NCBI RefSeq assembly: GCF_044704955.1
Contig: NC_091999.1
Coordinates: 10,788,001-10,852,000 of the forward strand
DNA: 64,000 nucleotides
Direction: 5' to 3'
Source: Pristiophorus japonicus
Taxonomy: Eukaryota
The translations under genes were made by a program, and so were the position numbers. Positions 29,746 through 64,000 of this stretch are shown here, piece by piece (the stretch's first letter is position 1; every line of letters starts with the position of its first letter). Under the pieces are notes generated by a model. The model was not told where the DNA came from and did not search any database. It worked only from the letters and a program-made list of their open reading frames with translations.

Positions 29746-30147
29746 ATCGCATAATAATACATAGCGGTATTCGAGCTCTCCGAGCTCTCAATGACCAATT
29801 GGCAGCGTTTGTCACCAGTGGAAAGATCCAATTCAATCGGGCTGTGCTTTCTTTGCCATGCGATGCTCGCATTTTTACCCACTCGATTCGCTGACTAGAT
29901 TTCTGTTTGTACAAGTGCATGGCATAAATGCTGGACATGTCATAGCTGCAGTTTATCAACACTGATTCACCCCTTCAGAATGTTATCGCAGCGGGAGAAT
30001 GCAGCAATTGGTCCGAGAGACATCGACCTGTAAAAATAGTCAGATCATAAAAAACTGGAGCAAAGCAAATAAAAACACTGTGGGTTATTGACCTCAGTTC
30101 CTGTACCTACTTGTTAGGAGCAGCAGAATAACGAGTAATAGCTTCAC
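29746..30147 (-). pseudogene. V1 paralogue (V1'), pseudogene with destroyed heptamer
   Basis: W to L in FR2, C to Y at YYC, frameshift, and a 10-bp deletion across the heptamer/coding border. Confidence 0.9.
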
Positions 30148-30249
30148 TTGTACCGAGTAATACATCGTTGGGAATATAATGTGAAGAATAACGCGGCTCA
30201 AAGCTCGACTCAGAAGACTCCGAACCGAATCAGAGAATTGCAGGTATCC

Positions 30250-32407
30250 CAGTCATGAAAGTGAGACAAGGGTTACAGCAATGGAAGGCAGAAGGTCCTG
30301 AGTGGAAAAATCCCGTGAGTTGTCGCATAAAAGGAGCAGGACAACGTGGTGCCTGGATCAAGACCAGTCAGTTGATAGAGAACTGGGATTGACTGGGAAA
30401 GAATTGGAAAAGTTAAAAGAAAAATTGAAAAATGAGGAAAGAGAAGCTAGAGTCACAGTCAGGAATGATACCTCGGTTCAGTTGCTGAGGTTGGGGTAGA
30501 TTCCACAGGTGAGCGAGGATACTTATCGGGATGCCGCTCCTCGACTACACATGTCGTTTCTTTCGGACCCTTACTTCAGGATAGGGGTGGCCATGCCCTT
30601 ATCCAGGCATGTGTGGGTGCCAGCGGGTGGGCAACGGGTGATTGACACAGGATCTGTCAGACAAATGAAGGTAGAGGTGCTCCTGGAGGAAGGAGATTCC
30701 CATCTTCAGAAGCAGTGTGCCATCACCCCAGTTCTACAAAGAGCAGTTACTGAACAGTCGGAGATGAAAGCAGTGGGAGAAGCTTGTTCAGAAGCATTTA
30801 TGTTTGTGCAGTAAATGGCTGTCTCAGAACTGATGAGATGTTCAGTGAAAAGCTCAAATGTGGAAGTTTCAATCATGCTCTTAAAGGATGCGAAATAGAA
30901 GTTTGAGCGTTGCAAATGTCAAGAGAGGAAATTACAGAAGCTTCGAAGGGTGAACTGAGAGAAGGACTGGGACTATCGACTGACAATTCAGTATTTCGGT
31001 CATCCTTTACTCTGTGTTGTTACACTTCTCCCACAAAGCAGAGAAAATTGTTAAAAACTGTGCAGAGGGCAACAGACTTAGTCGAAGACACCGATTGCGT
31101 GTTTACATTTCTGAATGTAAACAGCATGGAATTCAGTCGAAAACATCAAAAATTGAAAGTTGACGTTTAATTGAAAATGGATATGGTGATCACAGACCAC
31201 CGGACTTTAAAATGGCAAACTGATAATTTGAATCTTCAGCAATCTTACTTTGACCCCAATCGTGCTGCTATTTGGAAGAAGGAAATGTGGAAATTGAGTA
31301 CAAGATTTCAACAGCTAAAGAGTTTGAATCAGGGAATCGTTGTGGACATTAACCATCACAGTACTCACATCGAGAACGTTCGCTCAACTTTGGACCAGCT
31401 TGGACATGTAAGCTGGTGGGAGTTATTGTTGGATGGCGCCCAATGCCAACAGGCGCAATGGACACAATGATACACCCTGACTTTATGCTGGTGCTGTTTC
31501 AGCTGATCGTGCTGGTCATCTTGATTTACTGCTGATGGTTTGTTGTGAAAAACAAGGACTACAACTGGACAATGCCTTTGACGAGCTCCAGCGACCAAGC
31601 AAATGTATGTTACCCAGATAAGACCTACAGAGACGCAAGGAGAAGAAGTGGGGGAATGTGAGATCGCAGTCCGGCATTTCTGAATTCTTTGCTTCAGCAC
31701 GCGGTCTGAAGTTTGGAGCAAAAAACAAGAAGATTGGAAGTTTGGATTGAAAAAAGACTATTAGACAATGTGGTGCATTCCAGGCAGTGAGATGAGTGAC
31801 TGGTCATGGTATGTGTGTTAAATATTTGAGCACCTTGTTACGGTGCGAATAATGGAAACTCATGACTAATGGATTTGTTGAAGTCTGTATGTTATATTTG
31901 AGTTAACTGTTTTACTATGCGAGGAAACGATTCTCTATGTTCTGTAGTTTATTATAACTTTTTAAATATTTAATGACATCTGCAAGAGAAACAAGCAATG
32001 TTAAGTATGTGAGTACTTTGTTACGATGGGAATAATAGTGTGTATGATAAACGATTCAGAAAGCTGTTAGTCTTGATTGTCTAAATGCAAAGAAAAATAA
32101 TTCAAAGGCTTTTTAGATATAAAAGATTGAACCGGCTTTTGTCACACAGACACATGAATTGTAGAGACTCTTATAGACTGCAGAGGCACTTATGGAATGT
32201 AGAGACACTTGGACTCGAGAGACACTGGAATCTTGAAAGTTGTGTAATTCTGGAAGATCTGCCTTTGCAAGTAGAGTTGTTGGCCAGTGAATATCTGAAT
32301 GTTTAAATAAAGATCCGGCATTCAATGGAATTGAGTGTGTGCGGGTAATTCGACATTAAAAGCAATGGAAGGGAAAAGAGTAAGACCGCTGTTTACAACA
32401 CCCCACA
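30250..32407 (+). mobile_element. Duplicate of the LTR/ERV relic (LTR 31657-32407)
   Basis: Colinear with 780-2921. Confidence 0.6.
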
Positions 32408-33599
32408 GCAGTAACAGCTAATATCCAGCCTTAACTTTTGAAGTCGGGCTATCGAGCTCTGTTATAATTAAAGGGTTAAGAATGGATCTTCGAACGAAAA
32501 CGAGCTGACATCGGCTTTTGTCGTGGTCAACTTCCTAAAGGTGTTTAAAGGGAAATAACATATCATAATGATTAACTGTTACAAACTGTGTAAACTGAGG
32601 ATAATTTCAGGAGGCCAAACTGTTGACCCACCGGAAGCCCAGAGGGGCAGCTAAACAAGGCAAGGGGTCAAAAGTGCCAAAAAGGAAAAACGCCATCTGG
32701 TCAAGGCAAGAAAGATAAGAAAACATTCCAATGTACTATTGAACTTTTAGGATACAGTGAGGTTTCTGGAAAAGTATTGGAGATATGCGTGGTCAGGATT
32801 GTATCTTTACTTTGAGTGACCCGGGTGTTGAACATTTAAATCGATGTATGTCTCATGTATTGAATGCCCGGCCATTATGGGCCGAGAAACTGTAGAAAAA
32901 ACCTATGTTTTCTTTGTTCAGGGAGAGCAATTGAGCACAGCTCAGCAACAGGTTGACTGCAGACATGGCTTCACTTGCAAGCAAATTAAAGGCTGCTTGA
33001 ATCTTCCAATCCCGATCTGGTGTTGAGTGTTAATCTTAAATACTACATTACACTTTACAGAGCAGACAGCAGCAATGGGGCTACTGTGCGGGAGCTGTGC
33101 TCCCTGCTGGCAGCAGCAGAATAATTACGCTTCTCTGGGAGGCATTTCTGACACCCGTGCTGGATTACCGTCTCTGTACTTTTAGGAGAATGCTTCCACT
33201 ATAGAAAGGGGAAGAAAGGAACATATTGTCTGGTTATTATCACCTGAAATTTGACGAATTGTTATTAGTTTGGTTTATTCTGAGGTCGATTCATTGCCGA
33301 TATTTCTGTTATCTTTACTGTCAGGACGCTGTTAACTGTGACTCCAATGACCAATTCCTCACAGTCAGTTAACGAGTGAACTAACAATGATTAATAAGAA
33401 CACTCCCTGTAATTTAAACAGCGTTTGAAGCACCGTCCCCTTCTGTGGTTTGCATTTAAAATGCTGATCAAATTCTATCTGAAGAGTCCTGATCTGTATA
33501 ACGGTAATGACTTATTTAAAGGTCCATAAACTTCAGAACTTTGAATTGTCATGACAAGAATGGAGTGAACAACCGAGCGGAGCTTTTCAGCAAATTAAC

Positions 33600-34335
33600 G
33601 TAAATCTGATAAAGCTGTAGCATGACTTCTTTGCTTTTGTATTCCACCCCCTTGCAGTAAAGGCCAACATTCCATTTTCCTTCCTGATTCTCTGCTGTAC
33701 CTGCATACTAACTTTTTGTGTTTCATGCACAAGGACCCCTAGGTCCCGCTGTACTGATTTGAATCCTTGTGCATGAAACACAAACGTTAGTTTGCAGGTA
33801 CAGTAATTAATTAGGAAGTCAAATGGAATGTTGGCTTTTCATTCAAGGGGAATCGAGTATAAAAGCAGGGAAGTCCTGCTACAAATGTACAGGGTCTTGG
33901 TGAGGCCACACCGGCGTACTGCGTACAGTTTTGGTCTCCTTATTCATGGAAGGATATATTTGGATTGGAGGCAATACAAAGAAGTTTGACTAGATTGATT
34001 CTGGCGATTAGGGTGTTCACTTCTGAAGAAAGGATGAGCTGGTTGTTCCTATACTCATTAGAGTTTAGAAGAATGAGATGTGATTTTATTGCAGAGGGTT
34101 GTACATCTGTGGAATTCTCTGCCCCGGAGAGCTGTTGATGCATGGTCATTAATCATATTTAAGATGGAGATAGACAGAATTTTGAACGATAAAGGAGTGA
34201 AAGCTTATGGTGAGCGGGCAGTGATGTCGATTTGAGCCCATGATCAGATCAGCCATGATGTTAGGACATTGGTGGAGCAGGCTCAAAGGGCCAAATGGCC
34301 TACTCCTGATTCAAATTCTTATGTTCTTAAGTAAA
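33600..34335. mobile_element. Duplicate fold-back CR1 fragment
   Basis: Colinear with 4110-4845. Confidence 0.8.
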
Positions 34336-34784
34336 GAATCTGTGCGCCTCCAGAACTTTCGGATCGTTTGTAGATTATTTTCTATTTCTCACTGTCTTTC
34401 AGCCATTGGTTTTAATCCTCCTAAGTAATGAAGATGACGGCAAGTATTGATTAATTTAATAATCTGAAATTCATCAACTATAACACTAACGGAGCACTTA
34501 GAGAGGCAGAGTTATATAATTTTCCAAAGGGATCATTATTATTGAATTCTGACCTCTCAAGTGGATCCGACATGTGACAACACTGCCCGTGGCAGGCCCG
34601 CCCACAGCTTCCGTTTGCTGCTCTCGCTCTGACCGGCCTTGCCTGCCCTGTGTTATTGGAGAGATTGTTGCCGCTGTTCCCTGTTTGACATTTGTTGGGT
34701 GAGCAGTGCAGTGGAGCTGGGATTAGTATTTCTGCTCCGACAGAGGATTTCTTGGTCTGCAGTGTTATATACTCAGGGACCATC

Positions 34785-35260
34785 ATGCTGGACTCCTCAG
34801 CATAATATCACTTCTCAGTAAGCTTTTCTTTCCCAGTTATAGTCCATTCTCCCCCTGACTGCTGTAATCCAGGTGTTGATTGTTGTAAAATTATGACGCT
34901 GATGATGGTGACTATTACAATTATTTGTGTTAGGATTGAGCCACCATTACACAGTGGAACAGCCGATCGGTGCGATGACGGTTGAAGAGGAAAGTGATGC
35001 CACACTAATCTGCACTTTGAAAACAAGAGATACGAAGCTTACATCAGTAATATAATGCGGATGCTGGAATCCAAAATCTCAGCGGGCAGGCAGCATCTAT
35101 GGAGAGAAACAGATTTAATGTCTCGGGTCTATTAACCTTCGTCAAAATTGGAAAATGTCAGGATGAAACCGATCCTAAACCTTATGAGTTCTCGTACATT
35201 CAGTACCTCGGGCAGCCTCCACAGTATTTGTTTTATTTCCATGGAGGGATAGTCTTGAAC
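34785..35260 (+). pseudogene. V2 paralogue (V2'), truncated pseudogene
   Basis: Leader with a deletion, the same internal insertion and the same L2 truncation as V2. Confidence 0.8.
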
Positions 35261-35279
35261 GTGTTGTCGCCTCCAAAAT

Positions 35280-36420
35280 TGGTGAAAATCTTTCCCGCAA
35301 CTCCTTATTTGAATCGATCCAATCAGGTTTCCACCCCTGCTGCCGTGCCAGAATAGCTCTCATCAAAGACAGTAATTATATCCTTTGTGACTGACCCTCC
35401 TCACCCTTCTTGACTTGTCTGCAACCTTTGATGCGGATGTTCACACTATCCATCTCCAACGCCTCTCCAAGTATGTCCAGCTGGGAGGGACTACAATCGC
35501 CGGGTTCCATTTTCATCTATTTCATGGTAGCCAGTGAATCACCAGCAATGGCTTCACTTCCCCCTCCCGCATCGTTACCTCTGGTGTCCTCCAAAGATTT
35601 ATCTTTGACCTTTCCTATTTCTCATCTACATTCTACCATTTAGCGACATTATCCAAAAGCATAGCGTCTCTTTCCACATATATGCTGACGATGCACAGGT
35701 ATAACTCATCGCCACTTCTCTCGACTCCTCCACAGTCTCTAACTTGTAAGACTGCTTGTCCGATATCCAGCAGTAGATGAGCAGAAATGTCTCCAATTGA
35801 ATATTGGCAAGAACAAAACCATTGTTTTCGGTCCCCGCCACAATCTGAGTTCGCTGGCCACTGACAGCTGCCGTCCCACCCCCACATTGTAGCCTACATA
35901 AACTTGAGTTCATCCAACCTGGCTTCCCATATCCTAACTCGCACCAAGTCCCGTTCGACCATCACCCCTGTGCTCGCTACCTACATTAGCTCCCGGTTAA
36001 GCAACGCCTGCATTTCAAAATTATCATCCTTGTTTTCAAATCCCTCCATGGCATCGCACCTCCATATCTATGTAATCCCCTCTGGCCCCACTTTCCCTTC
36101 GAAATTTCAGTGCTTCTCGACTTCTGCCCTCTTGATCCTTCTTGCAGATAATCGCTCAACCATTTGTGGCTGTGTCTTCAGTTGCCTAGGCCGTAAGCTC
36201 AGGAACTCCTTGCCTAAACGGAACAGTCCCTTTACCTCTTGTTCCTCCTTTAAAACAATCCTTAAAACGTACTTTTTGAACAAGCTTTTGGTCATCTGCC
36301 CGAATTACTCGTTAATTAACTCGGAATCAAATGCTTGTCTTATAACAGCAGCAAGAAACCCCTTGGAATATTTTACTACATTCATGGCGCTGTATAAATA
36401 CAAGTTGTTGTTGTTGTTGA
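35280..36420 (+). mobile_element. Duplicate L2 fragment
   Basis: YADDAQVY; (TTG)n tail. Confidence 0.8.
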
Positions 36421-36769
36421 TATCGCCGACAGTGCGAATTCCAATTAATGTTCAGCAGATGTCGCTATCATGCCGCTTAACAGAAGAAATAATTCAGCCT
36501 ACGCAGTGCTTCGCAAGGAACTTTTTGAAGGGCAACAAATCACACAAGACTCAATAAGACCAGGTGAGGTCCACTGGCAGAATTATATTAGTTGGTGATT
36601 TTAATTCACGTTAATAATAAAAGATAATAATGAGAGCTCAGTGACAAGTTTAAAATGGCAGCAGTTACATTAAGTAATCTGACAGTATATTGGATAGGTG
36701 GGAATCATGAGACAAACCTCCATCCTCTGCATGTGGCAGATAATTAAATTCGGCTTTTCTGTGGTTTCA

Positions 36770-37087
36770 TACCTGATAAATTGCAACATCCACATTGACA
36801 CCTGGGTGTCCCTGGGCAAAGACCGCCCTCAGTGGAGGAAGTGCATCTGGCAGGGTGCTGAGCACCTCGAGGCTAGTCGCCAAGGGCATGCAGAGACCAA
36901 GCACAGGCAGCGTAAGGAGCGTGCCGCAAACCAGACTCCCCACCCACACTTTCCTTCAACCACTGCCTGTCCCAACTTTGACAGAGATTTTGTTTCTCGT
37001 ATTGGACTGTACAGCCACCTAAGCACTCATGCTAAGAGTGGAAGCAAGTCTTCCTCGATTCCGAGGAACTGCCTATGATGATTATGA
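36770..37087 (+). mobile_element. Duplicate RTE 3' end
   Basis: CPNFDRDFVSRIGLYSHLSTH. Confidence 0.7.
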
Positions 37088-37405
37088 AATGAGCTTCATT
37101 CAAATGGTTTCCCTGAGAAATGTACAAAGTTAGTGAATCAGCACGAGTTCAATGGGAGTGGACCATATATGTTTATCGACATCTGTGTTTAATATCGCTG
37201 CAATACATCTCCAATCAATGGGCGCTGGAGGCTGCTCCATAGATGCACTGACTGTGATTTAATTCAGTCTTTGAACAGTGTAAAATGTCCTATCAAAACC
37301 GCCAGAATGATCCATAGTCACATGTTTCTCTCTGCTCCCTCGGGACTCGGTTTACAAGGTGGCAGGAGTTTCTATACGAGAGTGCAACGGGTTTCCATCA
37401 TCGGG

Positions 37406-37857
37406 AGACTCAGAGCACATTAATAAACTACTGTGTCGGTCAGCTGCATCCTCGAGATGGTTAATAGTGAATGTATTCGTGGTTCAGGAGCTTTGCTGTG
37501 TAGCGGGTTTCAGCAAATGCTGCTTTAGCTTCATAACCGCTCGGGGTTTTCATCAGAATAAACTCGGGCTGTGTGTCTAGGAATTGCCGGTACCAGTATA
37601 TATAATAGCCTCTTGCGCAGTATCATAGATGCAGCTTAAAGTCATTGTTTCTCCTTCTGTCTTAACTCCTGAAGACAGACGCTGAGTGACAGAATCTCCA
37701 TGACTCACATCTGAAAAATATGTTCAACAGGAGAGATACAATGTTTAAAATTCAGATTTAAACCATATCATAAATGGAATGAAAGAAGAAGTGTGTTCGA
37801 TCCACAATTACCTGTCAAAAATGTCCCACATACAACCCAGATGCTAAGGAGCCACAT
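37406..37857 (-). pseudogene. V3 paralogue (V3'): leader 37812-37857, V exon 37406-37710
   Basis: Same frameshifts as V3 plus a TAA in YYC; degenerate RSS at 37367-37405. Confidence 0.9.
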
Positions 37858-38579
37858 TGTCACTGTATGTTCCGTAAAGTGGTGGTTGGATATTTGCAGA
37901 CACCCGTTAGAATCCCCAGCCTCAATAATCTGACATCATGTCTCAGGCTGCTCTCATCTCATTTCCTTGTGTTCCCAGTTGTGCTGTGAGCTGCCTGCTC
38001 ATGAATGGAATCAACCAGAACTGGACTACTGTGAATGTATTATACGGGAATAGTTCAGTTTTTAGAGACTTGAGTTGGAAATTAAATTCTTGTCTGGCTA
38101 TTGTAACCCGGAAGCGGAGGGTTAATGCTGGAAGAAAATATTCCAGAATTTAACAAACAATCAGAAGGGCAGTGGAAAAGTAGGAACTCAGTGATTGGGA
38201 CTTGTTTGGAATTGCAAAGTCATTACATTATGAACTCTGTGCCTTGCGTATGAACTGTCTCTGACCCAGCAACATGTTCTGTTCAAATAAACCCTGTGTG
38301 CAGGCCGCGATCAAAGGGTCTGGAACACTAACAGCGCTGCTTAAAAAGGGCTGCACAATATTGCAGGCAGGCACGAGTTAAGGTGCCACAGATGGATTTG
38401 TCATAATTGCGCGTTGCACTCACTAACTAACGTCATGCCTGAAGAGCACCTCACCTGCTCTGGTTGCGTGCTGTTTTATATTGCAAGTTTAAGAATTTCC
38501 CCGCAAGGTTGAATTATTGAATCTGTTCATCCAGGTGAGAACGGAAGTTCGGATCATATTGGCAGCATTTTCGTGATGG

Positions 38580-39315
38580 CACTGGTTGAGCTGCTACTGA
38601 TGTCTGTTGCAATTGCTAAATTGTGGAATGTGTTCCCTCTGCTGGTGTGAATGCTCCTGATGCCCACTGTATAATAGGTAATCAGTAAAATATGTTTCCT
38701 ATGCTTGTGTGTATGCTCCTGATGGTCGTTGTAATAGGCAATAAGTAAAATGAGTTCCTTCTGGTGTGAATGCTCCTGATGGTTATTGTAATAGGTAATG
38801 AGTAAAGTCTGTTCCCCATGCTGGTGTGAATGCTCCTGATGGCCATTGTACAATGGATACTTATTAAAATGTGTTCTCATGCTGGTGTTTATGCTCCTGA
38901 TGGTCATTGTAATCGGTAATTAGTAAAATGAGTTCCATATGCTGGTGTGTTTGCTGCTGATGGTCATTGTAATAGGTAATTAGTAAAATGTGTTCCCTAT
39001 GAAGGTGTGTATGCTGCTGATGGTCATTGTAATAGGTAATTAGTAAAATGTGTTCCCTATGCTGGTGTGTATACTGTTGATGTTCATTGTAATAGGTAAT
39101 TAGTAAAATATGTTCCCTTCAAGTGTGAATGCTCCTGATGGTCATTGTAATAGGTAATGAGTAAAATGTGTTCCTTATGCTGGTGTGAATGCTCATGATG
39201 GCCATTGGAAAATAGGAAATTCGTAAAATGTGTTCCCTATGCTGATGTGTATGCTGCTGATGTCCATTGCAATAGATATGTTGTGCTACATATTCCCTAT
39301 GCTGGTGTGAATTTT
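38580..39315. repeat. About 60-bp minisatellite (11 full units)
   Basis: Same unit as 9105-9718. Confidence 0.95.
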
Positions 39316-39362
39316 CCTAATTAAGAACGGGACTAACTAATGATTTAAATACTTTTACGCAG

Positions 39363-39665
39363 GTAATATCCAATGCAGTTCTGTAATGCAGCCTCAATAT
39401 GAGCTAAAGGTATATGAAGGAGATAAGTCTCAATTGAACTGCAATTACAACACCAGTTCGGATGATCCGAGTCGTTACTGGTACCAGCTGTACTCGAACT
39501 AGGTTTTGCAGTTTATTTTGTACTGTGATAACACCAGGGGAAGGATTGCATGTTTTGTGAAAGTAAAATTCGATGCTCATCATTTCAATCGATATCAAGT
39601 TTTCCTTTGTCAATTTCTGCAGCAGAGACTGAAGACAAACTGGTCTATTGCTGTGGACTGAGGAT
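39363..39665 (+). pseudogene. V4 paralogue (V4')
   Basis: In-frame TAG after WYQLYSN and an FR3 frameshift; RSS CACGGGG-22-GCAAAAATC at 39666-39703. Confidence 0.88.
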
Positions 39666-40729
39666 CACGGGGCTTCAAAACTGCTCGACTCTGAGCAAAA
39701 ATCTCACCAAACCACAGTCCATCCCAAGAGCTAATTAAAGACATCTGTCATCGAGCGAGTCAAGAAAAAACTATTTGTCATTGAGGGAATGATGAAAATA
39801 GATCTCGCATTTTTACAAGAAGTGTACAAAGGTTGAGGTACATCGTGTCCGTGGAGAGACTCGAGAAACGGAGATTGTTCTCCTTGGAGCAGCGAAGGTT
39901 AAGTGGAGTTTTAATAAAGGTGTTTAAAATTATGAAGAGTTTTGATCAAGTAGATGGGGAGGAAATGTTTCCACTGCCATGAGGCTCGATAACCAGACGA
40001 CACAGATTTATGATAAAAGGCCAACAAAATCCAGACGGCAAATTAGGAGAATATTTTCTGCAGAGAATTGTTACAATCTAGAATGCATTGACGGAAAGTG
40101 TGTTGGAAGTAGATTATATAATAACTTTCAAAAGGGAATTAGATAAACACTTGAACAGGACAAGTTTTCAGTGTTATGGGCAAAGAGCTGGTTCGTGGGC
40201 CGAATTGGATCGCTCATTCATAGACTGAGTACAACACAATGGGTCTTCTTCTGTGCTGTACGTTCTTTAATTCAATAAGTCGCTCGCCACCCTGAATTTG
40301 ACGTAAATCGTCGTTTCTTTACTGTCTCTGGGTCAATAACCTGGAAGTCCCTCCCTCACAGCACTATAGTGACACCTTCAGCAAGGGCAGCTAGGGATGG
40401 GCAATTGAATCCGGCCTTGTCATCGACGCCGATATCTTGAGAATGGACAGAAAAAATTAAGAGAATCAGCCGGGTCAGTAGGACAATCACCACGTGAAAT
40501 GTTGCTTGGTTTCTGTCACACATTCTTTCTTTCTATATTTCAGTTTTTCTCTCCTCTCTCGCACGTTCTCTCGTTCACTCATTTTCATTACTTCAATTTC
40601 TTCCTTTGCAATATTAAAAAACATTCAACAGTTATATTACATTTCTCGATTTTTTTGATCATGAAGTATGAGGTGAGGAGGGAGGGGTGAATTGATAAAC
40701 AGAAATCCCCTTCAGGGTGGTGTTATCTA

Positions 40730-43700
40730 CATAGGAGCACGAGTAGTTTAGTTATCCCCTCCAGCCTGCTTCGCCATTCAGAGACCATGGCTGTGACGTA
40801 ACTTCATATGTTTTGCGCCATATCCCTTAATAAATGTGGTTGAAAAAACCTATCAATCTCAGACTGAAAATGAACAATTGACCTGCTAACAATTGCCGTT
40901 TACAGAAGAGAGTTCCAAACTTCTGCCAAACCTTGAATGTAGAAATGATTCTTAACTTCACTCCAGAAAGGCATGGCTCTAACTTCTCGGCTATTTCCCC
41001 TAGTCCGAGAGACCACACGCGATGGAAATAGTTTATCTCAATCTAACCATTAGAAGCTTGAAAACCTCGATCAAATCACACCTGAACCATATAAATTCCA
41101 GCGAATTCTGCACTAGTTTGTGCAATCTCTCATCGTAATTTAATCCTTGAAGTCCACTTTTCATTCTGGTAAATCCACGCTTCACACATTGCTAGGCCAA
41201 TATATCCTGCCAAAGGTGTGCTGCCTAGAACTAGTCACAGTACTTCAGGTAATGCCTAACCAGGCATTTTCTGCAGCTGTAGCATAATTACGACCCCCTT
41301 GTATACGAGTCCTCTAGATATAAAGGCCAGCATTCCAGTAGACGTTTTGTTTATTTTCTGTGTCTGTCCATGACATTTTAATGATCTATGTGCATTGACC
41401 CCCAAGAATCTTTGTACCTGTATTGTTTCTAGCATTTCACCATTTCCAAAATACCCTCTTCTAGCGGTTTTAGGTCCAAAATGGATGAACTCACATTTGC
41501 CTATATTGAAATCCATTTTCCAGAGAGTTTTACCCATTCGCTGAATATGGTAATATCTCCTTGTAATTTTATGTTTCCATATACCTGCTTACAATGGCGG
41601 CTATCTTTGTGTTATCGGCAAATTGTTGCTTTTTTATCCCATCACCTCAGTCATTAAAAAATATGGTGAATATTTGAGACCACCACTGAACCTTGCAAAA
41701 AACTATTATCGTGACGCTTTTTCTCCTGCCGCTCAGCCAGTTTCGTAACAAGGCCAATAATTTGTCTTCACTTCCACGAGCTTCAACTTTAGCTAGCAGT
41801 CACTTATGAGAGACTTTATCAAATTCCGTAAGGAAGTCCATATAAATAACATCCATACACATTTCCCTGTCCATTACATTAGTCACCTCTGCAAAAAATT
41901 CAACGAGGTTCGTCTGATATGACCTACCTGTCCCAATGTATGCTGGCTGTCTCTGCACAGCTGAATATTTTTATGGTGTTCATTCACTCTATCCCAAGTT
42001 AAAGATTCTAGTAATTTTGTGACAACACATGTTAGGTTACTTGCATATAATACCCTGGCTTTCCTCGCTCACCTGTCTGAAATAACGGAGTGACAAGCAC
42101 AATTTTGCCATCGAAATGAACAGTTCCTGAATCAAGAGAACTTTGGTAGATTATAGTTAGGGCATCTGCAATATTCACACCTGCATCCTTGAAAATCCTG
42201 GCTTGGAAACCATATCGTCCTAGGGATATTTCACACTTTTTGCCATTATTTTATTCATGACTGTTATTTTCTTTATGTTACTTTTTTGAGCTACCGAGCC
42301 AGCTTCAGTTTCCTTTATATATCCGGATTGCTGTGCACTTGCTGTATCGAAACAGTGAGGCAAAGTGATACTCAACATGTCCTTATTTTCGATGACACTT
42401 TCACCGTTATCAATTTTCAAGGGACCCACATTGTTCCTGAACACCTATTTTTCTTGATATAATTGTCAAACAAATTGTGTTGATTTTTATATCCCTTGAA
42501 GGTGCACTTACATACTCCTTTTTTGTAGATCACTATCTGTTTTGTCACCCTTTGCTTTTCTTTGCATCTTTCCCATTCACCAGGATCTGTGCTATTATTT
42601 GCTTTATTGTATGCGTTTTCTTCTCATTTCATGTGGTCTCTTACCTCTTTAGTCATCCATAGCTGTGTTTGACAAGTACAGCTCTTAGCCCTTTGGGGTA
42701 TAAACTTATTTTGTGTCACATTGAATTCTGTTTTGAACAACTCCCATCGATCTTCTGTCGTTTCACCCATTAACAGATTTCCACAGTTTCCTGTGGACAG
42801 TCTCTGTCTCATTTCATTGAAGTCAGCCTTATCCAAATCTACAATGTTAGTAGCTGTTTCGCGTTTCACCCTTTCACAGGCTATGATGAACTTGATCATA
42901 CTAAGCTCGTTATTAGATAATTATGCATATACCGTTAGGGTGTTGAATAAATCTGGCTCATTACTCATTGCAAATCGAATTGTACATTCCTGTCTGGCAT
43001 AGAAATAAAAAAGGGAAGGTGGCTCAACCGAGGCTATCAAGGGAAATCAGGGATAGTATTAAAGCCAAGGAAGTGGCATACAAATTGGCCAGAAATAGCA
43101 GCGAACCTGGGGACTGGGAGAAATTTAGAACTCAGCAGAGGAGGACAAAGGGTTTGATTAGGGCAGGGAAAATGGAGTATGAGAAGAAGCTTGCAGGGAA
43201 CATTAAGACGGATTGCAAAAGTTTCTATAGATATGTAAAGAGAAAAAGGTTAGTAAAGACAAATGTAGGTCCCCTGCAGTCAGAATCAGGGGAAGTCATA
43301 ACGGGGAACAAAGAAATGGCGGACCAATTGAACAAGTACTTTGGTTCGGTATTCACGAAGGAGGACACGAACAACCTTCCGGTTATAAAAGGGGTCGGGG
43401 GGTCTAGTAAGGAGCAGGAACTGAGGGAAATCCTTATTAGCCGGGAAATTGTGTTGGGGAAATTGATGGGATTGAAGGCCGATAAATCCCCAGGGCCTGA
43501 TGGACTGCATCCCAGAGTACTTAAGGAGGTGGCCTTGGAAATAGTGGATGCGTTGACAGTCATTTTCCAACATTCCATTGACTCTGGATCAGTTCCTATG
43601 GAGTGGAGGGTAGCCAATGTAACCCCACTTTTTGAAAAAGGAGGGAGAGAGAAAACAGGGAATTATAGACCGGTCAGCCTGACATCGGTAGTGGGTAAAA

Positions 43701-45470
43701 TGATGGAATCAATTATTAAGGATGTCATAGCAGTGCATTTGGAAAGAGGTGACATAATAGGTCCAAGTCAGCATGGATTTGTGAAAGGGAAATCATGCTT
43801 GACAAATCTCCTGGAATTTTTTGAGGATGTTTCCAGTAGAGTGGATAAGGGAGAACCAGTTGATGTGGTATATTTGGACTTTCAGAAGGCGTTCGACAAG
43901 GTCCCACACAAGAGATTGATGTGCAAAGTTAGAGCACATGGGATTGCGGGTAGTGTACTGACATGGATTGAGAACTGGTTGTCAGACAGGAAGCAAAGAG
44001 TAGGAGTAAATGGGTACTTTTCAGAATGGCAGGCAGTGACTAGTGGGGTACCGCAAGGTTCTGTGCTGGGGCCCCAGCTGTTTACACTGTACATTAATGA
44101 TTTAGATGAGGGGATTAAATGTAGTATCTCCAAATTTGCGGATGACACTAAGTTGGGTGGCAGTGTGAGCTGCGAGGAGGATGCTGTGAGGCTGCAGAGC
44201 GACTTGGATAGGTTAGGTGAGTGGGCAAATGCATGGCAGATGAAGTATAATGTGGATAAATGTGAGGTTATCCACTTTGGTGGTAAAAACAGAGAGACAG
44301 ACTATTATCTGAATGGTGACAGATTAGGAAAAGGGGAGGTGCAAAGAGACCTGGGTGTCATGGTACATCAGTCATTGAAGGTTGGCATGCAGGTGCAGCA
44401 GGCGGTTAAGAAAGCAAATGGCATGTTGGCCTTCATAGCAATGGGATTTGAATACAGGGGCAGGGAGGTGTTGCTACAGTTGTACAGGGCATTGGTGAGG
44501 CCACACCTGGAGTATTGTGTACAGTTTTGGTCTCCTAACCGGAGGAAGGACATTCTTGCTATTGAGGGAGTGCAGCGAAGGTTCACCAGACTGATTCCCG
44601 GGATGGCGGGACTGACCTATCAAGAAAGACTGGATCAACTGGGCTTGTATTCACTGGAGTTCAGAAGAATGAGAGGGGACCTCATAGAAACATATAAAAT
44701 TCTGACGGGGTTAGACAGGTTAGATGCAGGAAGAATGTTCCCAATGTTGGGGAAGTCCAGAACCAGGGGTCACAGTCTAAGGATAAGGGGTAAGCCATTT
44801 AGGACCGAGATGCGGAGGAACTTCTTCACCCAGAGAGTGGTGAACCTGTGGAATTCTCTACCACAGAAAGTTGTTGAGGCCAATTCACTAAATATATTCA
44901 AAAAGGAGTTAGATGAGGTCCTTACTGCTAGGGGGATCAAGGGGTATGGCGAGAAAGCAGGAATGGGGTACTGAAGTTGAATGTTCAGCCATGAACTCAT
45001 TGAATGGCGGTGCAGGCTAGAAGGGCCGAATGGCCTACTCCTGCACCTATTTTCTATGTTTCTATGTTTCTATGCCCGCTTGTTGGTTCCAGTGCATATT
45101 ATTCAAGAAAACTCTCCTGACACACTCAGGACACTCACTACCTTTCCAACATTAGTTGGTCAGATTATCGCAATCTACATGAAAGTTAAAATCTTTCATT
45201 AAAACCAATCTGTCTTTGCTACATGTTTGTCTAATCTCTGCATCTCTACATTCTACCACTTCACAACTGCTATCAGGGGGCATATAAACAACTCTCACTA
45301 AAATCTTAAATCCATGTTATTTCTTAATTCTACCCATTAAGTCTCCACGATCTGCTTAAATCTCGTTTCTCCTCTCTTATCATTGATGCGATTTCATTCT
45401 TATTCACTAAGGCTACCTGTCCTCCTCTACCATACTCTGTAATCTCTGCCTCTCCTCCTTTAATCTACTG
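40730..45470 (-). mobile_element. Duplicate degenerate CR1 (host of the young insertion)
   Basis: Colinear with 11140-13790 on both sides of 42981-45071. Confidence 0.8.
42981..45071 (+). mobile_element. Young 5'-truncated CR1 LINE with uninterrupted ORF2 (RT domain) to TGA at 44972-44974
   Basis: 668-codon ORF: KSPGPDGLHP, NYRPVSLTS, YLDFQKAFDKVPH, GVPQGSVLGP, KFADDTKLG. (TTTCTATG)n tail; absent from copy 1. Confidence 0.97.
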
Positions 45471-45710
45471 AGTGACGTTGTGAGTGTCGTAGTAGGAAGT
45501 AGAGAAACTACATCCGATGAGATGTTAAAATGCTCTTACCCAATTCTTACATTCGGTAGTTTTACCAGAAACAGACTTGCATGAGATACTTCCTCACTTT
45601 CTGTTATATCGTCCAGTCGAACACTTTCTCACTTTACTCAGTATAACGCATCGCAACAGTAGGCAGAACTGTTATTCCAAGCGATTGTTGGTGAAGATAG
45701 AGTGGACCCC

Positions 45711-46163
45711 ATGTCGTACTGTCACCTCATCATATAGTGGCTCGTGATTCTAAGTATGGCCATGCCTTTAACTATTTGCACTGATATGAAGTGACTTGAC
45801 ATTCTAAGTTATTAGATGTTCTATCTCTGTACTGTATTCAAAGTTAACTTTTATTTCAGGGGAGATTCAGGCAGATTCGGTGGCACAACCTCAGACCGCG
45901 CTCTCTATCACTGAAGGAAATGGAGTGAAAATAGATTGCAGTTACACATCAAGCTTCGCAATCCCAGAACTGTACTGGTACCGGCAGCACACGAACCAGG
46001 CTCCGCGTTTTATTTCGTACCGGGATAACAACAACAAAGATGATGCAGATTTTGCTCAGGGAAGATTCGAGGCTGGCCAAGCAAACGCATAAAATAAGTT
46101 TCCTTTAACAATCAATCGAGCGGAAATACTGGACTCTACCTTTTATTCCTGCGGGTTACGCTA
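45711..46163 (+). pseudogene. V5 paralogue (V5'), pseudogene
   Basis: TAG in leader, TAA at 46090-46092, YFC changed to YSC. RSS CACAGTG-23-ACAAAAACC at 46164-46202 remains perfect. Confidence 0.93.
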
Positions 46164-46321
46164 CACAGTGTTGTAAAGCTAATCTCTCACTGTACAAAAA
46201 CCTGAGTGAAATAAAACTGCCACAGATGGTGCCTCAACCCTCTGATTCAGAGACGCGAGTTAGACTGATTGAGCGACGGCTGACACTGACAGACAGTTGA
46301 ATAGAACCGTTCCTTGTCTGC

Positions 46322-46705
46322 AAGTGTCAGCCGTGGCTCAACCGCTCTCACTGATGCCTTGGGTCAGAAAGTTTTCACGTGAAGTCTGACTCCACGGACT
46401 CGGGCTGCATAATCCAGGACCGACACGACCGATGCTGGTACTGAGGCAGAACTGCACTATCCGAGGGCATAGCTTCTTTCAGTGAGATGTTAAAAGAAGA
46501 CCCTCTTTGCTTTTGCAAGTGGATGTGAAATATTCCACAGCACTGTTTTGAAAAAAGCATCAGAGCTCACCCAGGTGACGTGGGCCAAATTCATCCGAAA
46601 TTCAGATAATTGCAGTGCTCTTTGTGGGATCTTGACGTGCAGAAATTGGCCAGCGTGCTGCCTGCATGACACAGTATATATTTAAATTACTTCGTGGCAT
46701 TTTGG
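46322..46705 (+). mobile_element. Duplicate SINE
   Basis: Colinear with 14640-15025. Confidence 0.6.
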
Positions 46706-48519
46706 GATGTGTGCGGCAGTCTGTCTGGACCAGGGCGCCTTTTCCTATCTGTCATTGTTCCTATATAAATCATTTTATACATTGCAAATCCTGGAGTGGT
46801 CTCACTTCCAATCTAGCCGCGATGATGTCAATTATTTTAGTGGCCGTGGCGCCTGGCCAATGGCGCATTGTGCCTTTCAAGGGACCGGATTTGAGGCTCT
46901 TTGCAACAATCCGCGAACAGCACTTGAGCCTAGAACCATCAGGGCACATTTTCACAGAAGCATCGGCTCAGTTTAAGAGTTGTAAGCTTCATTAAATTGC
47001 TCAATTTCTTTGTTCCATTTGCTCTCTTACCCACATCCTGCAAAACGACTTTTGATGACCTAGTTTTTTGGATGCGAATAAAACATCGAACCGCAGGATT
47101 GTCAGTTATATTTATAAAAATAAATAACTTGCATGATGAAAAATCTTTCGGTTGCTAACTGAGAGTAACGGTTTATATTGAATGCTTTTTAAGGCAAGTG
47201 GAATATGGTAGCATAGCCTTAGATTCTCAGTTATTTTAAATTTTCTGTAAACATTTCTGTGCTTGGTGTGTTTTATAGTGGGAGAAGGGAATTTGTAAAG
47301 CCAGAATAACAGTGGAAAAAACAGAGAGAATAGCAATCCCTGAAATATTATAATCAGAAAGTGACTGAAATGTAAAGCAAGACAGTCAATATCTGAAAGT
47401 GAAGGACTGCGCAGAGCTTTACTGGGAGATCTCAGCAGCCAAGATCTTTTAAGAGTCGGCAATTGTCGTGCTGCTCTAATCAATAATTTTTGGTCTTTAT
47501 ACCATGAATGGACTTTGGACAAAATAGTCAAGTTCAATTGAAGGGAAGTCTCTGATGTAAATAAAATCATTTTCAACGATTTAATATCACGTTTTGTCCT
47601 TCAACCTCAAAGTGATATATTTTATTTGAGATGCTGTTTTACAATGCATGCATTTATTCTCTGATAAACTTAGCGCATTTGCCTTCGCGTTAAAGCACTA
47701 TTTAGCAGCGGGGTGCACTGAAGACAACTTTTGCTGACACTTTCAGTTGACCATCAGTAACTGTTACCCTTTATCCTGGTCCGAAATTTCCCCGAATCAT
47801 ACCGGATGTTTTAACTAAACTGATTTGTGCAGATTTTGTTCGAATAGCACCGTGGACACAGCAGGATAATACGATAGGGCTTTCGTAATCTGCATGGACA
47901 TTAGATGTGGCGATCGGAGAAGTTATGTAGAGAGCATTAGACAAAATGCTTGATTATAAATTCCATAAAATGCATGTAAATTGAGGAGAAATGTTGCTGA
48001 CCAAAATGCGGAGAAAAATCAAGAATCTAATGGGATGTGGCAGAGCCAAAGCTCAGCTTAATTTTGAAACTTATATTAATTTCCAAGAAAGGTGATACCA
48101 CGTTTTAACATGATTAAAATCTGAAGAATTTCAGTACAAATGAAGTGAAGCAGATTGTCATTCGCAGTGCTGTAACCCGTGTACAAACTAATGCAGAAAG
48201 CTCTACATTCAAAGCCGAAATTCACAGTCGGTTCACAAATACCTCGGCACAGTAACGAACAAGGGCTTTTAACAGAAAAGTGATGAGGAAAACTCAAAAC
48301 TTTTCGGTTGTACTTAAAATGATTCATTCAGACAAAGGTTAAAGCAATGTGCTTTCTGCTGGTTGTACCACCCTGAGAGTCGCGTTTCTGAGAGGCCGTC
48401 TTTGCCGTCCTGGATAAGGAACAATGGTAATCAGAATAAGTGGAAAAACAAGATGTTCGGAGTAATAAAAACAATTTTTTGGGGGGTTTTGCTGAATATT
48501 CAATTTTTAACATACTTTA

Positions 48520-58140: not shown

Positions 58141-58928
58141 CGTTTTTCAACAGCTGTCTCCGTGCTCTGCTTCATTGTGCCTGTGATACCCACCACGTCC
58201 AGGTTTGTGAAGTCTCTTTATGCATTCTATCACTGTGTGTCTGTAATCCCCACTATGTTTAGGCTTTTGAACTCTCTCGGTGCTCTGTATCACTGTGTGT
58301 TGGTAATCCCCAACATGTTCCGGTTTTAGTAGGACTCTCCCTGCTCTCTCCTTCCCCATTTTCTCCCCCTCCCCTGGTTCTCCACGTTCCCGCCCCAGCT
58401 CTCCCCCTCCCTTTGCTTCCTCCCTGCCCGTGCTCTCCCGTTCCACTTTCTCCCACTGCTCTCTCCCTCTCATTGCTCTCCCCGTCCTTCCTTTCCTCTC
58501 CATGCTCTTAACAGATAAGGGAATAAGGGTTTAGGGGAACCGGGCAAGGAAGTGGACCTGAGTCCATGATCGGATCAGCCATGATCGTATTAAATGGCTG
58601 AGCAGACTCGAGGGGTCATATGGCCTATGCCTGCTCCAATTACTTATGTTCTCATGTTCCCTCCATGGACTATATCATTGCGTATCTGTAATCGCCATCA
58701 TGATCAAGTTTTAGTGTGGCTCTCTCCCTGCTCTGTACCACTGTGTGTCTGTAATCCCCACTATGTCCAGGTTTTTGAACTCTGCGTGCTCTTTGTCACT
58801 GTGTGCCTGTAATCCCCAACATGTTCAGATTTAATACCGCTCTTTTCATGTTCTGTATGACTGCGTATCTGCAATCCCGACCATGATCAGGATTTTGTAC
58901 GGCTCTCTCCGTGCTGTGTAGCACTGTG
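58141..58928 (-). repeat. Tandem array of about 60-bp units, each containing a heptamer-spacer-nonamer (RSS-derived); interrupted by a pyrimidine tract and a CR1 3' fragment (about 58340-58660)
   Basis: Perfect CACAGTG (minus) at 58231-58237, 58291-58297, 58739-58745, 58797-58803 and 58922-58928, each with a nonamer-like motif 18-23 bp away. Confidence 0.88.
58890..58928 (-). promoter_or_regulatory. 23-RSS of V11
   Basis: CACAGTG-23 bp-ACAAAATCC. Confidence 0.93.
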
Positions 58929-59234
58929 CTGTGCGCCGACTCGGTGCACAGTAATACACAGCGGAGTCACTCAGTTGCAGTTTTGCAATGTTTAACCGGC
59001 TGATTTTCTCGGCAGGATCGATCGTAGCAGAAATTCGGCCACCGGCAGTGTTTTCTTCATTCCCCTCTCCTGAAGTGTGTCTCTGAAGCAGGTATTTTGG
59101 AGGCTGCCCTGGGGACTGACAGTACCAGTGTACGGTGTACTGACAGGCACCTGAATATTCACAGCTTAAAGTAATGGTGTCACCGACAGTAGAGGTTTGT
59201 AGAAGCGGACTCTGGGACACCGTGGAACTGGAAG
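58929..59234 (-). CDS. Open TCR delta-type V exon (V11) with extra CDR1 cysteine and no intact leader; candidate NAR-TCR supporting Vdelta
   Basis: SSSTVSQSPLLQTSTVGDTITLSCEYSGACQYTVHWYCQSPGQPPKYLLQRHTSG...RI...DSAVYYCAPSRR; CCTCCAG acceptor, phase 1. Confidence 0.85.
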
Positions 59235-59698
59235 CTGGAGGGCAAAAATGGGAGAATGTTATTTATTTGGCTGCTATTTACCCGGGGACTGTGGTCAATC
59301 ACAGAAAAATTCTGCCTCTCACGGTAATGCTATTTTCATTTGAAGCCTGCTGCAAATTTATTCACTCTCAATGTGGAAAGAATAAGAGGGGGAGTTCAGA
59401 ACATTTTTTAAGCAGCAAGTTTTTATGAACTAGAATGCACTGCCTGAAAAGGTGCTGAAACCATATTCAATTGTTACTTTCAAACTGGAATTGGATCACT
59501 ACTGCAAAAGAAAACATTTGAAGCGCTATGGGGAATGAACAAAGGGCTGGGACCAAGTGGCAGCACCTTCACGAGCCGGCAGAAGAAATGACCTCCTTCT
59601 GTGCTGCATGATGTTATGATTGCTAGTAACTTTATCTTTCTATTTTTCTTGGTGCAAGATAAACCCGAGGTAACATTGTAATTCTCCTCCTCACTTAC

Positions 59699-59757
59699 AA
59701 TGATGATTGACCCATAGGAGCACTGCTGCGTTATTCCACTGAGCACAGCAAATCCAT
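59699..59757 (-). pseudogene. Frameshifted leader-exon relic of V11
   Basis: ATG GAT TTG CTG TGC TCA GTG GAA TAA; the shifted frame reads AAVLLWVNHH into a GTAAGT donor. Length 59 nt is not 3n+1. Confidence 0.55.
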
Positions 59758-62359
59758 CAAGAAGCAGTGTGGTTCATCAGCACCGATTGAGCCAAACTGA
59801 AATTTTGTGGGTCAAAGCCCAAGCGTTCAATGTAACCTTACTCTTACCGGGAGCTCCTGCCTGCCTTTAACTCTGTTTCACTTTTCTTCCGTAAATTGGG
59901 CAAATATTACGCCATTTAAATTTAAGTTGAATTATTTCCAGTTAGTTTCATTTTATTTCCACATCTGGGTCGCTCACTTTGTGCTGTTTGTGGTTTTCTT
60001 CCCAGCCTGTGAACTTGTCCTAAAGTGACTCAGTTATCGGTTGGTTTCAGTCTGTGCAGCTTCTGCAGTGGTTTTACTGTTATTCACTGGAAACTGGCTC
60101 TTCAAACACTCTGACAATTGCTGTTCCTGACGCCCATTGGATGAGTCAATCCGACTTGCTCCGGGTGGAGTTTTCTCTGAGTTTTACATTGTACAGAATC
60201 TGCAGAAAAGGAACAGTCCATTCGACTCAACGAGTCGGTTTTGGTGTTTATACTCCACACGAGGCTCCTCCCACTCTAATTCCCCCTTCCCACTGTGAAA
60301 CCCATGTTCATCCATTCCGTTCTTATCATGTGTTTTCCAAGACGCGCCTTAATTGCATCAAAGCTCTCTGCTCCAACTTGTCCATGTAGAAACATAGGAA
60401 CATAGAAATTTACAGTGTAGAAGTAGGCCATTTCGGTCCATCGTGTCTGCACAGGCCGACAAAGAGCCGCATGGACCTTGGTCAGCAGCCCTAAAGGTTA
60501 TGTATAAACCAATGAACAATGACGTAGAGGGAAAGAACACCCAGCCAAACCAATCAGCCTCACACAACTGCCACACCCCTTATACTGTACCATTCTACAC
60601 TCCACCCCAACCGGAGCCATGTGATCTCCTGGGCGAGGCAAAAACCAGAGAAATTCCCAGGGAGAAAAAATGTGCAAAAACTTTCTCTCGGGGACATCCA
60701 GGCGATCGAAACTAGTCCAGGAGATCATGCTCGCGGTATTCTTTTCACTGCAGTACTTACCATAATATCTGCGTCGTCCAACAAAAGGTCATCCAGTCTA
60801 ATCCCAATTACCAGCTCTAGTTCCGTAACCCTGCAGGTTATGGCACTTGAAGTGTCCATCCAACCATCTCTTAAAGGTTGTGAGTGTTTTTGCATCCACC
60901 ACTCTTCCAGGCAACGAGTTCCAGATCCCCACACCCATCTGTGTAAAGAAGCATCCCCTCGAATCCTCTCTAAATCTTCCACCATCCCCCTTAAATCTAT
61001 GCATCTCGTTATAGAAAACTCCCTCAATGGAATTAGGCCCTTACTATCTACTATGTCTAGGCCCCTCAATATTTTCTACACCTCAATAAGGTCTCATCTC
61101 AACCTCCTCTGTTCCAATGAGAACTAATCCAGCCTATCCAATCTGTCCTCATATCGAAGATTCTCGGTTCCAGACAGCATCCCAGTAAATCTCTTCACCC
61201 TCTCTACTGCAATCCGTCCTTCCTATAATACGGCAAATAGAACAGCACACATTACTCCAGCAATGGCCGAACCAGAGTATTTTACAATTTAAGCATAACC
61301 TCACTGCTCTTATATTCTATGCCTCGGCCAATAAAGGCAAGCATTCCATATGTCTTCTTAACGATCTTATCCGCCTGGCCTGCTGCATTCACGGATCTGT
61401 GGACAAGCACTGCAAGGTCCCTTTGTTCATCTACCTAATAAGTGACCTATCGCCTAATGTGTATACACTTTCCTTGTTACCCCTCCGAAACTTCGTCAAC
61501 TCACATGTCTCTGAATTAAATTGCATTTGCCACTACTCTTCTCACCTGACCAGTAGATTGATATCCTCCTGTAGCCCATGACTTTCCTCCTCATTATCAG
61601 CACACAGCCAATTTTAGTGTAGTCTGCAAATTTCTTAATCATACTCCCTATGTTCAAATCTAATTCGTTGATATTCACCAAAAAGCTAGGGAACCAGTAC
61701 TGAGCCCTGCGAAACCCCACTGGAAACATCCTTCCAGTCACAAAGACATCCATCAATCATTACCCTTTGCTTCCTACCTCCAAGCCAGTTTTGGATCCAA
61801 CTTGCTACATTGCCCTGTATCCCATGGGCGTTAACCTTCATGGCAAGTCTGCCATGTGGGAGCTTATCAAAAGCCTTTCCACAGTCCATATGTACTAGAT
61901 TGAAGGCACTAGCATCGTCGATCCTCTTGATAACCTTCTCAGAAAATTCAATCAGGTTAGTCAAACACGATCTTCCCTTAACAACTCCGTGCTGACTCTC
62001 CCTAAATAATCCAAATGAAGATTCATCCTGTTTTTCAGATTTTTTACAATAGTTTTCCCACCACTGAGGTTAGGCTGACAGGCCTGTAATGAATCGACCT
62101 GTCCCTTTTTTCCTTCTTGAACAGGGGTACTACATCAGCAATCCTCCAATCCTTCGGCACTATGCCCAGATCCAAAGATGAGTGGAAAAAATGGTCAAGG
62201 CCTCTGCGATTTCCTCCTTTACTTTGCTCAACAGCCTGGGATGCATTTCATCTGGTCCTCTGGAATTATCTAATTTCAAAACTGTTAAACCACTTAATAA
62301 TTCCTCTCTCACTATATTTATTTCATCCAGAATATCACACGCCTCCTTGATCTCAGTAT

Positions 62360-62456
62360 AGAAACATAGAAACATAGAAAATAGATGCAGGAGTAGGCCA
62401 TTCGGCACTTCTAGCCTGCACCGCCATTCAATGAGTTCATGGCTGAACATGCAACT
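62360..62456 (-). mobile_element. About 100-bp CR1 3'-end insertion, same young family as 42981-45071
   Basis: Near-identical to the 3' UTR of that element; flanked by TCAGTAT at 62353-62359 and 62457-62463. Confidence 0.85.
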
Positions 62457-63660
62457 TCAGTATCTGCATTGTCCCTTTCCTTTCTGAAAGCAGAGCAAAG
62501 TATTCAATAAGAACCAGACCAACATCTTTCGCCTCCACACAAAGATTACCCTCATGGTCACTAAAAGGCCATACCCTTTCTCTAGTTACCCTCTTACTCT
62601 TAATATCTTCATCGAACATCTTAGGGTTTTCCTTAATTTTACTGCCCAAGAATTCCTTGTACTCTCTCTTAACTTTCCTAATAACTTTTTATTTTTTTCT
62701 CTTAACTTTCTATATTCCTCTGAAGATTTTATAGTATTTAGCCGTTAGTATATGACATACACGTCCTTTTTTTCTCAATCCTCCCCTGTAAGTCCCTAGA
62801 CATCCGGCGGGGGAGGGGTGGGGTGGTTTGAATTAATTTTCCAAGCCTTTTTATTTCAGGGAACATATTTGGCCTGAACTTTCCTGATCTCCTCCTTGAA
62901 TGCCTCCCACTGTTCCGACACTGATTTCTCCACAAGTAGCTGTTTCCAGTCTACGATGGCCAAATCAGTCCTTCACTTAGAAAAATTTGCTTTACCCCAA
63001 TTCGGAACATTTATTCCAGGCGTATTCTTGTCCTTATCTATAACCAACTTGAATTTGACTGTATTATGGTCAGTGGCACCCTAGTGCTCTCCCACTAATA
63101 CACTTTTAACCTGCCCAGCTTCATTCCGCAAAACTAAATCTAAGACCGCCTCCTCTCGTGTTGGGCTTGCTACATACTGACTAAAAATGTCCTCTTCAAC
63201 GCATTTCAAGAATTCCGCACCCTCTATACCCTTCACACTAAATTTGTTCCAATCAATATTTGGACAGTTAAAATCCCCTACTTTTACTACCCTAAGGTTT
63301 TTGGACTTCATAGCAATTTGCTTACATATTTCCTCCTCTATCTCTCTCCAACTGTTTGCGGGTGTATAATACAAGCCCAGCAGTGTCATCGCAGCTTTTT
63401 TATTTTTCAATTCGACCCATATGACTTCATTTGATGATCCCTCTAACATAGTATCCCTCCTCACCGCTGCAATAGTTTCTTTAATCAGTACCACAACCCG
63501 TCCCCCTTTTTTACTCCCTCTCTATCTTGTCTAAAAATCCTGTAGCCAGGAATATTGATCTGCCAAACCTGCCCCTCTTCCTGCCATATCTCTGTAATGG
63601 ATATAATGTCATACCCCATGTGTCTACCTCTGCTCCTCGCTCATCCGCCTTACTCGCTAT

Positions 63661-63849
63661 TGTAATGACTCAAGGATAGCTTAATGTAAACTCACTCAAG
63701 TGCAAGCTGATCCATCTTTATTCCAGCTCAATTGTGCCTGCGTGATAAAGATACCCAGCTTTTATACAGGTGACTAAGGGTACAGCCCGATGTCCTCCGA
63801 CCGCAATGCCCTGTGGTGTGTGATGACCCCCAAGCATTAATACATAACA
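63661..63849 (-). mobile_element. Solo LTR (189 bp) with 5-bp target-site duplication
   Basis: TGT...ACA termini; GCTAT at 63656-63660 and 63850-63854; TATAAAA and AATAAA on the minus strand. Confidence 0.85.
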
Positions 63850-64000
63850 GCTATACTCCTTGCATTAAAGTATATAACATTCAGCACAGGAAGACCTCCT
63901 TCCTTATTACATACTAAGCCCTGTAACCTCTGTCTTACAGATTCGCTTTCTGGATTCTTGCTATCCAATTTCTGATTTACTTCCTTCCCTTTTGAATTCG

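Follow-up and report, generated by a model that had tools for sequence, protein, structure and literature searches.

What receptor chain is served by a V exon that carries a recombination signal of its own but no credible leader is the question raised by the minus strand of a 64,000-nt stretch of the genome of the sawshark Pristiophorus japonicus (hereafter the window), a TCR alpha/delta-type V region with V segments on both strands, many of them broken. The initial annotation proposed that the exon at 59234-58929 is the supporting Vdelta of a NAR-TCR cassette, in which two rearrangements contribute to one delta chain. The placement of the exon among supporting Vs and a gene model with a NAR cassette upstream of it both support this identity, and the same stretch of DNA also contains, directly behind the exon, a tandem array of RSS-like units that the initial annotation did not mention.

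An open V exon with its own recombination signal

The open V exon, the CDR1 Cys, the intact acceptor and the perfect heptamer described in the initial annotation were all confirmed from the minus-strand sequence (Table 1). The reading frame runs uninterrupted in phase 1 from 59234 (...CEYSGACQYTVHWYCQ...YYCAPSRRTA) and matches the Pfam V-set with E=9e-16; a PDB sequence search returned generic antibody matches. Four Cys codons are present, two canonical (59163 and 58950), one in CDR1 (59145) and one in FR2 (59121). The exon ends at a 23-RSS with its heptamer at 58928 and its nonamer, which has one mismatch, ending at 58890, and it therefore has its own recombination signal for independent rearrangement. 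The acceptor is predicted from sequence to be the recipient of a NAR J donor, and it is supported by the junction of TVTA with ASSSTV in the gene model P0003 and by a tblastn match that starts at 59235.

Table 1. Features at and around the supporting Vdelta exon, in window positions
Feature	Position	Strand	Remarks
Supporting Vdelta exon of NAR-TCR cassette	58929..59234	-	Open, leaderless, phase-1 acceptor
Polypyrimidine tract and AG splice acceptor	59235..59260	-	AG at 59236-59235
True 23-RSS	58890..58928	-	CACAGTG, 23-nt spacer, ACAAAATCC
Non-canonical CDR1 Cys (CEYSGACQY)	59143..59145	-	In 55/57 other relatives of at least 50% identity
FR2 Cys (WYC), polymorphic position	59119..59121	-	Cys 5, Ser 19, Arg 30 of 57 relatives
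Leader-like ATG..GT	59478..59517	-	Chance, inside repeat; rejected as real leader
Decayed LINE in putative J-to-Vdelta intron	61689..63521	-	RT and endonuclease fragments
Head-to-tail array of seven extra RSS-like units	58141..58889	-	Period 58-63 nt, ~24-nt linker
Best-preserved extra unit	58707..58745	-	Perfect heptamer, 23-nt spacer, 2 nonamer mismatches
Interspersed repeat splitting array	58514..58658	.	7 further window copies, 71-78% identity

The surrounding V locus includes a segmental duplication of ~15 kb at an offset of ~29.5 kb (1-15691 vs 29476-47372, 92-96% identity), with duplicated V pairs at 273/~29750, 7931/37405 and 14483/46164, several pseudogenes, and two copies of a 60-nt minisatellite of ~10 units (9117-9716 and 38627-39275). 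The V copy at 29650-29790 (-) has no heptamer at its 3' end, in contrast to its duplicate at 273. Two related Vs at 17341 (-) and 19841 (+), 62% identical, face apart and both have the heptamer CACACTG; the former is open and its partner carries a stop. An open conventional V at 28120-28465 (+) has the heptamer CACAGAG, with its best leader candidate 545 nt upstream.

The upstream NAR cassette and the relatives of the exon

The public P. japonicus gene model P0003 includes the exon and its read-through at 100% identity over 129 residues and gives, in order, a NAR-type V, a J ending DGSGTVVTVT and then exon 59234-58929. Both the NAR V and the J of P0003 are open, and the NAR V keeps a Cys in FR1 (ECQ) and has FFRQ in place of WYRQ, with no FR2 Trp. 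The cassette that had been predicted upstream, beyond position 64000, is thus borne out by this model, its DNA lying outside the window. A profile search of the whole window found no NAR V or NAR J (best scores of 25.8 and 1.8 bits, vs 163-165 and 30-47 bits for the controls), in agreement with the earlier statement that no such cassette is visible in 59235-64000. It follows that the J lies more than 4,766 nt from the exon, across the decayed LINE, of which the Pfam matches are RVT_1 (E=2.5e-9, 61689-62069) and Exo_endo_phos_2 (E=1.3e-7, 63084-63521). Two points that count against the explanation preferred here are that the sole source for the upstream cassette is an automatic gene model and that no D segment was seen.

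A search against longer proteins gave 58 matches among 160 candidates, 56 of them shark, ray or chimaera types at at least 53% identity and two of them distant. A NAR V was present upstream in 53 of the 56 shark-type relatives and a J motif in 52, and 48 of the 53 relatives having a NAR V have the FR1 Cys. The expectation in the initial annotation that the J itself would contain a Cys had to be dropped, as an FR4 Cys was found in none of the 52 models with the J motif, and the likely partner sits instead in FR1 of the NAR V. The only model flagged for a J Cys, P0034, has this Cys in the N-terminus of the supporting V, the flag being an alignment artefact.

The exon is 55-84% identical to 12 supporting Vs vs 25-44% to nine conventional Vs. 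Trees were built with 12 to 21 of 57 relatives, chosen for species coverage. In a 22-row tree, the exon fell within a 13-row supporting-V clade (100/99) that includes elephant shark, as the sister of the sawshark paralog P0009 (96/91), and joining it to V28427 or to V14483/V46164 was rejected (p-AU 0.002 and 8e-5). The phylogenetic comparison with supporting and conventional Vs that had been suggested as a check therefore groups the exon with the supporting Vs and rejects a conventional grouping. Its position within the supporting-V clade is loose, since the AU test did not reject a tree in which the remaining 12 supporting Vs group to its exclusion (p-AU 0.112). In a 49-row tree that included NAR Vs, the supporting group had support of only 80/71 and took in two long Ig branches, and the bootstraps were unsettled.

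Among individual relatives, P0022, the white-shark LOC121270138, is 74% identical to the exon over 99 residues and is labelled NARTCRdV (PMC12227049, Table S1). P0045 and P0046, 70% and 67% identical to the exon, contain a whole leader-NARV-J-V-CDR3-J-C chain and read as fully rearranged, with a second CDR3, an FGxG J and a C domain, and these two may be cDNA products. P0006, P0008 and P0004 have two tandem NAR V(-J) units ahead of one supporting V, and a white-shark row 'NARTCR V(gj)V(gi)V' carries the same NCBI description as P0008 (PMC12227049, Table S1). Of the 27 loci found by a metagenome scan, 26 were 32-43% identical and one was a short match at 88% that had only one RSS; none was a supporting V, and these loci were used solely as RSS controls.

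Given these results, exon 59234-58929 is almost certainly a member of the NAR-TCR supporting-Vdelta family. We also consider it highly probable that this leaderless exon with its CDR1 Cys stands behind the annotated IgNAR-like V and J in a cassette that likely undergoes double rearrangement and splicing into a three-domain chain. By comparison with the known system, the NAR V-D-J would join independently, the supporting V would join Ddelta-Jdelta through its own 23-RSS, and the NAR J donor would be spliced to 59234, so that the chain would use the leader of the NAR V. A bond between the CDR1 Cys and the Cys in FR1 of the NAR V would then brace the unpaired antigen-binding domain, and the supporting V domain itself may pair with Vgamma. 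The likely outcome of the two rearrangements and splicing would be a single three-domain delta chain.

The CDR1 Cys is predicted to form a disulfide with the Cys in FR1 of the NAR V; it is absent from all five conventional Vs of the window that were translated and are open or have a single stop. A two-domain model (pLDDT 76, pTM 0.51, FR1 loop <50) returned no distances for this pair, and with a fold search it gave two Ig V folds of unresolved orientation with a TM-score of at most 0.44. The FR2 Cys, which the initial annotation took for possible private decay, is common to P0009 and four Hemiscyllium models (5 of 57 relatives), and small residues seem to be tolerated at this position, given that Ser occupies it in 19 of the 57. 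Four exon residues are rare among the relatives, namely A29, E59 and T70 (each in 1/57) and P97 (0/50). Eight supporting Vs, from Scyliorhinus (P0034, P0035, P0038, P0040 and P0049) together with P0020, P0024 and P0051, have no first canonical Cys, which is replaced by Trp in five and by Tyr in three, and keep the CDR1 Cys.

Judging from the sequence, we lean slightly towards this sawshark cassette being expressed. The main alternative, to which we give a somewhat lower but still substantial probability, is a dead cassette of the same family, in which the upstream NAR V has lost its leader or RSS and the open supporting V is never part of a receptor; this bears on the status of the cassette and not on the identity of the exon. 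P0003 is without the leader of its NAR V and begins with a conventional-V fragment (57% identical to 26541-26651), which together with the four rare substitutions, the LINE within the intron and a duplicated neighbourhood rich in pseudogenes favours the dead cassette. The missing leader is tempered by the observation that a NAR V leader, counted by eye, is present in 37 of 53 models and missing from 16, indicating that annotation misses are common. Further points against loss of function are the intact exon, acceptor and RSS, the short end branch of the exon (0.079 vs a median of 0.17), and the open NAR V and J of P0003 with the FR1 Cys in place.

A tandem array of RSS-like units behind the exon

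The seven extra units behind the true 23-RSS have their heptamers at 58865, 58803, 58745, 58682, 58297, 58237 and 58179, and the array, which also holds one nonamer-linker remnant near 58330, has a mean column identity of 78%. A 20-nt linker-heptamer pattern matched four times vs 0.02 expected, with all matches inside the array, which Tandem Repeats Finder overlooked. The unit at 58745 is a plausible 23-RSS by sequence, and the one at 58179 shows 1+3 mismatches at a spacing of 23 nt. Three of the other extra units have spacers of 18-20 nt, which are unusable under the 12/23 rule, and two are without CAC. Loss of CAC sharply lowers recombination, according to the accessible portion of PMC2193808. 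The array is split both by the interspersed repeat and by a purine-rich tract at ~58340-58500 that adjoins it. The units were rejected as D segments, since a D-oriented heptamer or nonamer is lacking on their 5' side, and lengthening of CDR3 by the array was rejected for the sawshark copy, in which the V frame stops at 58848, within the first extra unit. Because of this stop, recombination at a distal unit would yield no productive chain.

No array was present behind the seven other RSSs viewed in the window or behind 44 fish RSSs, of which two had a lone perfect heptamer within ~330 nt, both at offset 331. Other shark species were checked indirectly, by asking whether the protein read-throughs of gene models can encode a second heptamer-plus-spacer unit. 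Many models end right at the heptamer and fall outside this test, and synonymous freedom inflates the read-through matches, the shuffles having the same freedom. Seven of 15 tails beat at least 199 of 200 shuffles, these being P0055, four of the five Hemiscyllium models tested (P0013, P0019, P0030 and P0026), P0047 from Rhincodon and P0048 from Stegostoma. A second unit was not found in the tails of P0037, of white-shark P0008 and P0010, of three spliced-looking models and of two distant controls (8 of the 15). P0055 would accommodate five 23-RSSs spaced exactly 61 nt apart (offsets 7, 68, 129, 190 and 251; 0/300 shuffles). An exhaustive comparison of its read-through with 1.84 billion proteins gave one other match, the whale-shark P0063 (E=2e-4), likewise a model of the form NAR V-J-supporting V, whose second RSS-like unit lies at offset 72; in a word-indexed protein set the read-through matched itself alone. 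From these read-throughs, epaulette, whale and zebra sharks would appear to have the same array behind supporting Vs of their own.

Most probably the array arose long ago by tandem duplication of the RSS with ~24 nt of flank and is now decaying; the decay seen in the sawshark copy favours such an origin, with slippage and erosion. We think it unlikely that the array is a selected cis-element, in which the extra 23-RSSs would catch or load RAG at supporting Vs, or in which joining would take place first at a distal unit and then again at the proximal RSS, which is still intact. Its confinement to supporting Vs, against the seven other RSSs of the window and the 44 fish RSSs, and the regular five-unit array of P0055 leave room for such a RAG-loading or retry-join role, as do the further units suggested for Hemiscyllium, Rhincodon (P0047 and P0063) and Stegostoma. 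The sawshark copy argues in the other direction, as just one of its seven extra units combines a perfect heptamer with 23-nt spacing, three have the aberrant spacers, two are the ones without CAC, and a repeat has been inserted. In 25 of 56 relatives the V frame also stops no more than one codon from the V end, which excludes CDR3 extension there, no second unit was found in the white-shark (P0008 and P0010) and P0037 tails, and the support from other species is indirect, coming from protein read-throughs. It is likewise doubtful that an ancient 23-RSS array common to sawsharks and carpet sharks tunes recombination and so helps to coordinate the two NAR-TCR rearrangements; such tuning, itself improbable in either form, might recruit or stall RAG or might proceed through a first join that is sacrificed and a further attempt at the proximal RSS. 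No description of such an array was found in the literature by titles and abstract openings, and key subscription papers or supplements may mention it.

The leader and comparison with known receptor systems

The statement in the initial annotation that no in-frame leader lies upstream stands in that no credible leader was found, but not in its literal form, as one weak stop-free phase-1 ATG..GT is present upstream, inside a repeat. This candidate (59517-59478) falls within an interspersed repeat at 59398-59541 and would leave an intron of 243 nt to the exon, with a donor of 5/8. An equally good candidate was found within 1 kb at 147 of 1500 random points, and the best score of a NAR-leader profile in the window was only 0.8 bits. 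Eight of the nine other Vs tested in the window have a leader 83-153 nt upstream, the candidate of the ninth being at 545 nt, and exon 59234-58929 has no such leader with a good donor at ~80-150 nt. That the exon is a conventional TCR alpha/delta V, with the ATG at 59517 as the leader of an ordinary two-domain chain, is very improbable, for although this ATG..GT is in frame and equals the V7931 leader in hydrophobicity score, it is repeat-borne, has a weak donor and is readily matched at random points, the tree tests rejected joining the exon to conventional Vs, and P0003 shows a NAR V-J upstream.

NAR-TCR was described in 2006 by Criscitiello, as cited in the accessible text of PMC1845163, PMC5931798, PMC6795676 and PMC12227049, and a doubly rearranging chain with an unpaired outer domain is described in the available parts of PMC5931798, PMC6795676 and PMC3457774. 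In the portion of PMC1845163 that is accessible, the NAR-TCR V has a leader and an a-b loop Cys and is without the Trp of WYRK, the associated Vdelta has no leader and has a CDR1 Cys, and the interdomain disulfide is termed putative. The sawshark exon resembles this supporting Vdelta in its missing leader, CDR1 Cys and own RSS, and the locus resembles the system in having a NAR V (with FR1 Cys and without FR2 Trp) and J upstream, amid TCR alpha/delta V genes oriented in both directions. Table S1 of PMC12227049 lists seven NARTCR rows for white shark, with spans of 3.8-12 kb and lying in either orientation among TCR V genes, which fits the long intron and the mixed orientation in the sawshark. 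Its differences from the described supporting Vdelta are the FR2 Cys, a minority variant, CAP for CAL at the V end, a LINE-containing intron of more than 4.77 kb, and the tandem RSS array, of which no description was found.

With conventional shark TCR alpha/delta Vs, the exon shares a V-set exon, a phase-1 acceptor, a 22/23-nt RSS and the same locus; these differ in having a leader, mostly 83-153 nt upstream, no CDR1 Cys and a single RSS, and those neighbouring it in the window are 25-41% identical to it. The supporting V of TCR mu in marsupials and monotremes is also a second V domain beneath an unpaired antibody-like V in a three-domain chain, but it is VH-related, germline-joined or D-less, and in a separate locus, and TCR mu is treated as convergent with NAR-TCR (accessible part of PMC3457774). 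A TCR mu supporting V was rejected for exon 59234-58929, which is an unjoined shark V with an RSS in the supporting-Vdelta clade.

With this exon, a family recorded in nurse shark, elephant shark, white shark and stingray gains a sawshark representative, one that is already present, though unnamed, in the public gene model P0003. We know of no account of the means by which the order and timing of two V(D)J events serving the same chain are set within one locus. If an array of RSSs restricted to supporting Vs does act in recombination, it would be a concrete cis-element bearing on the ordering of the two rearrangements, and if it is neutral, it would be a marker for locating supporting Vs as well as a trap for RSS-based annotation.
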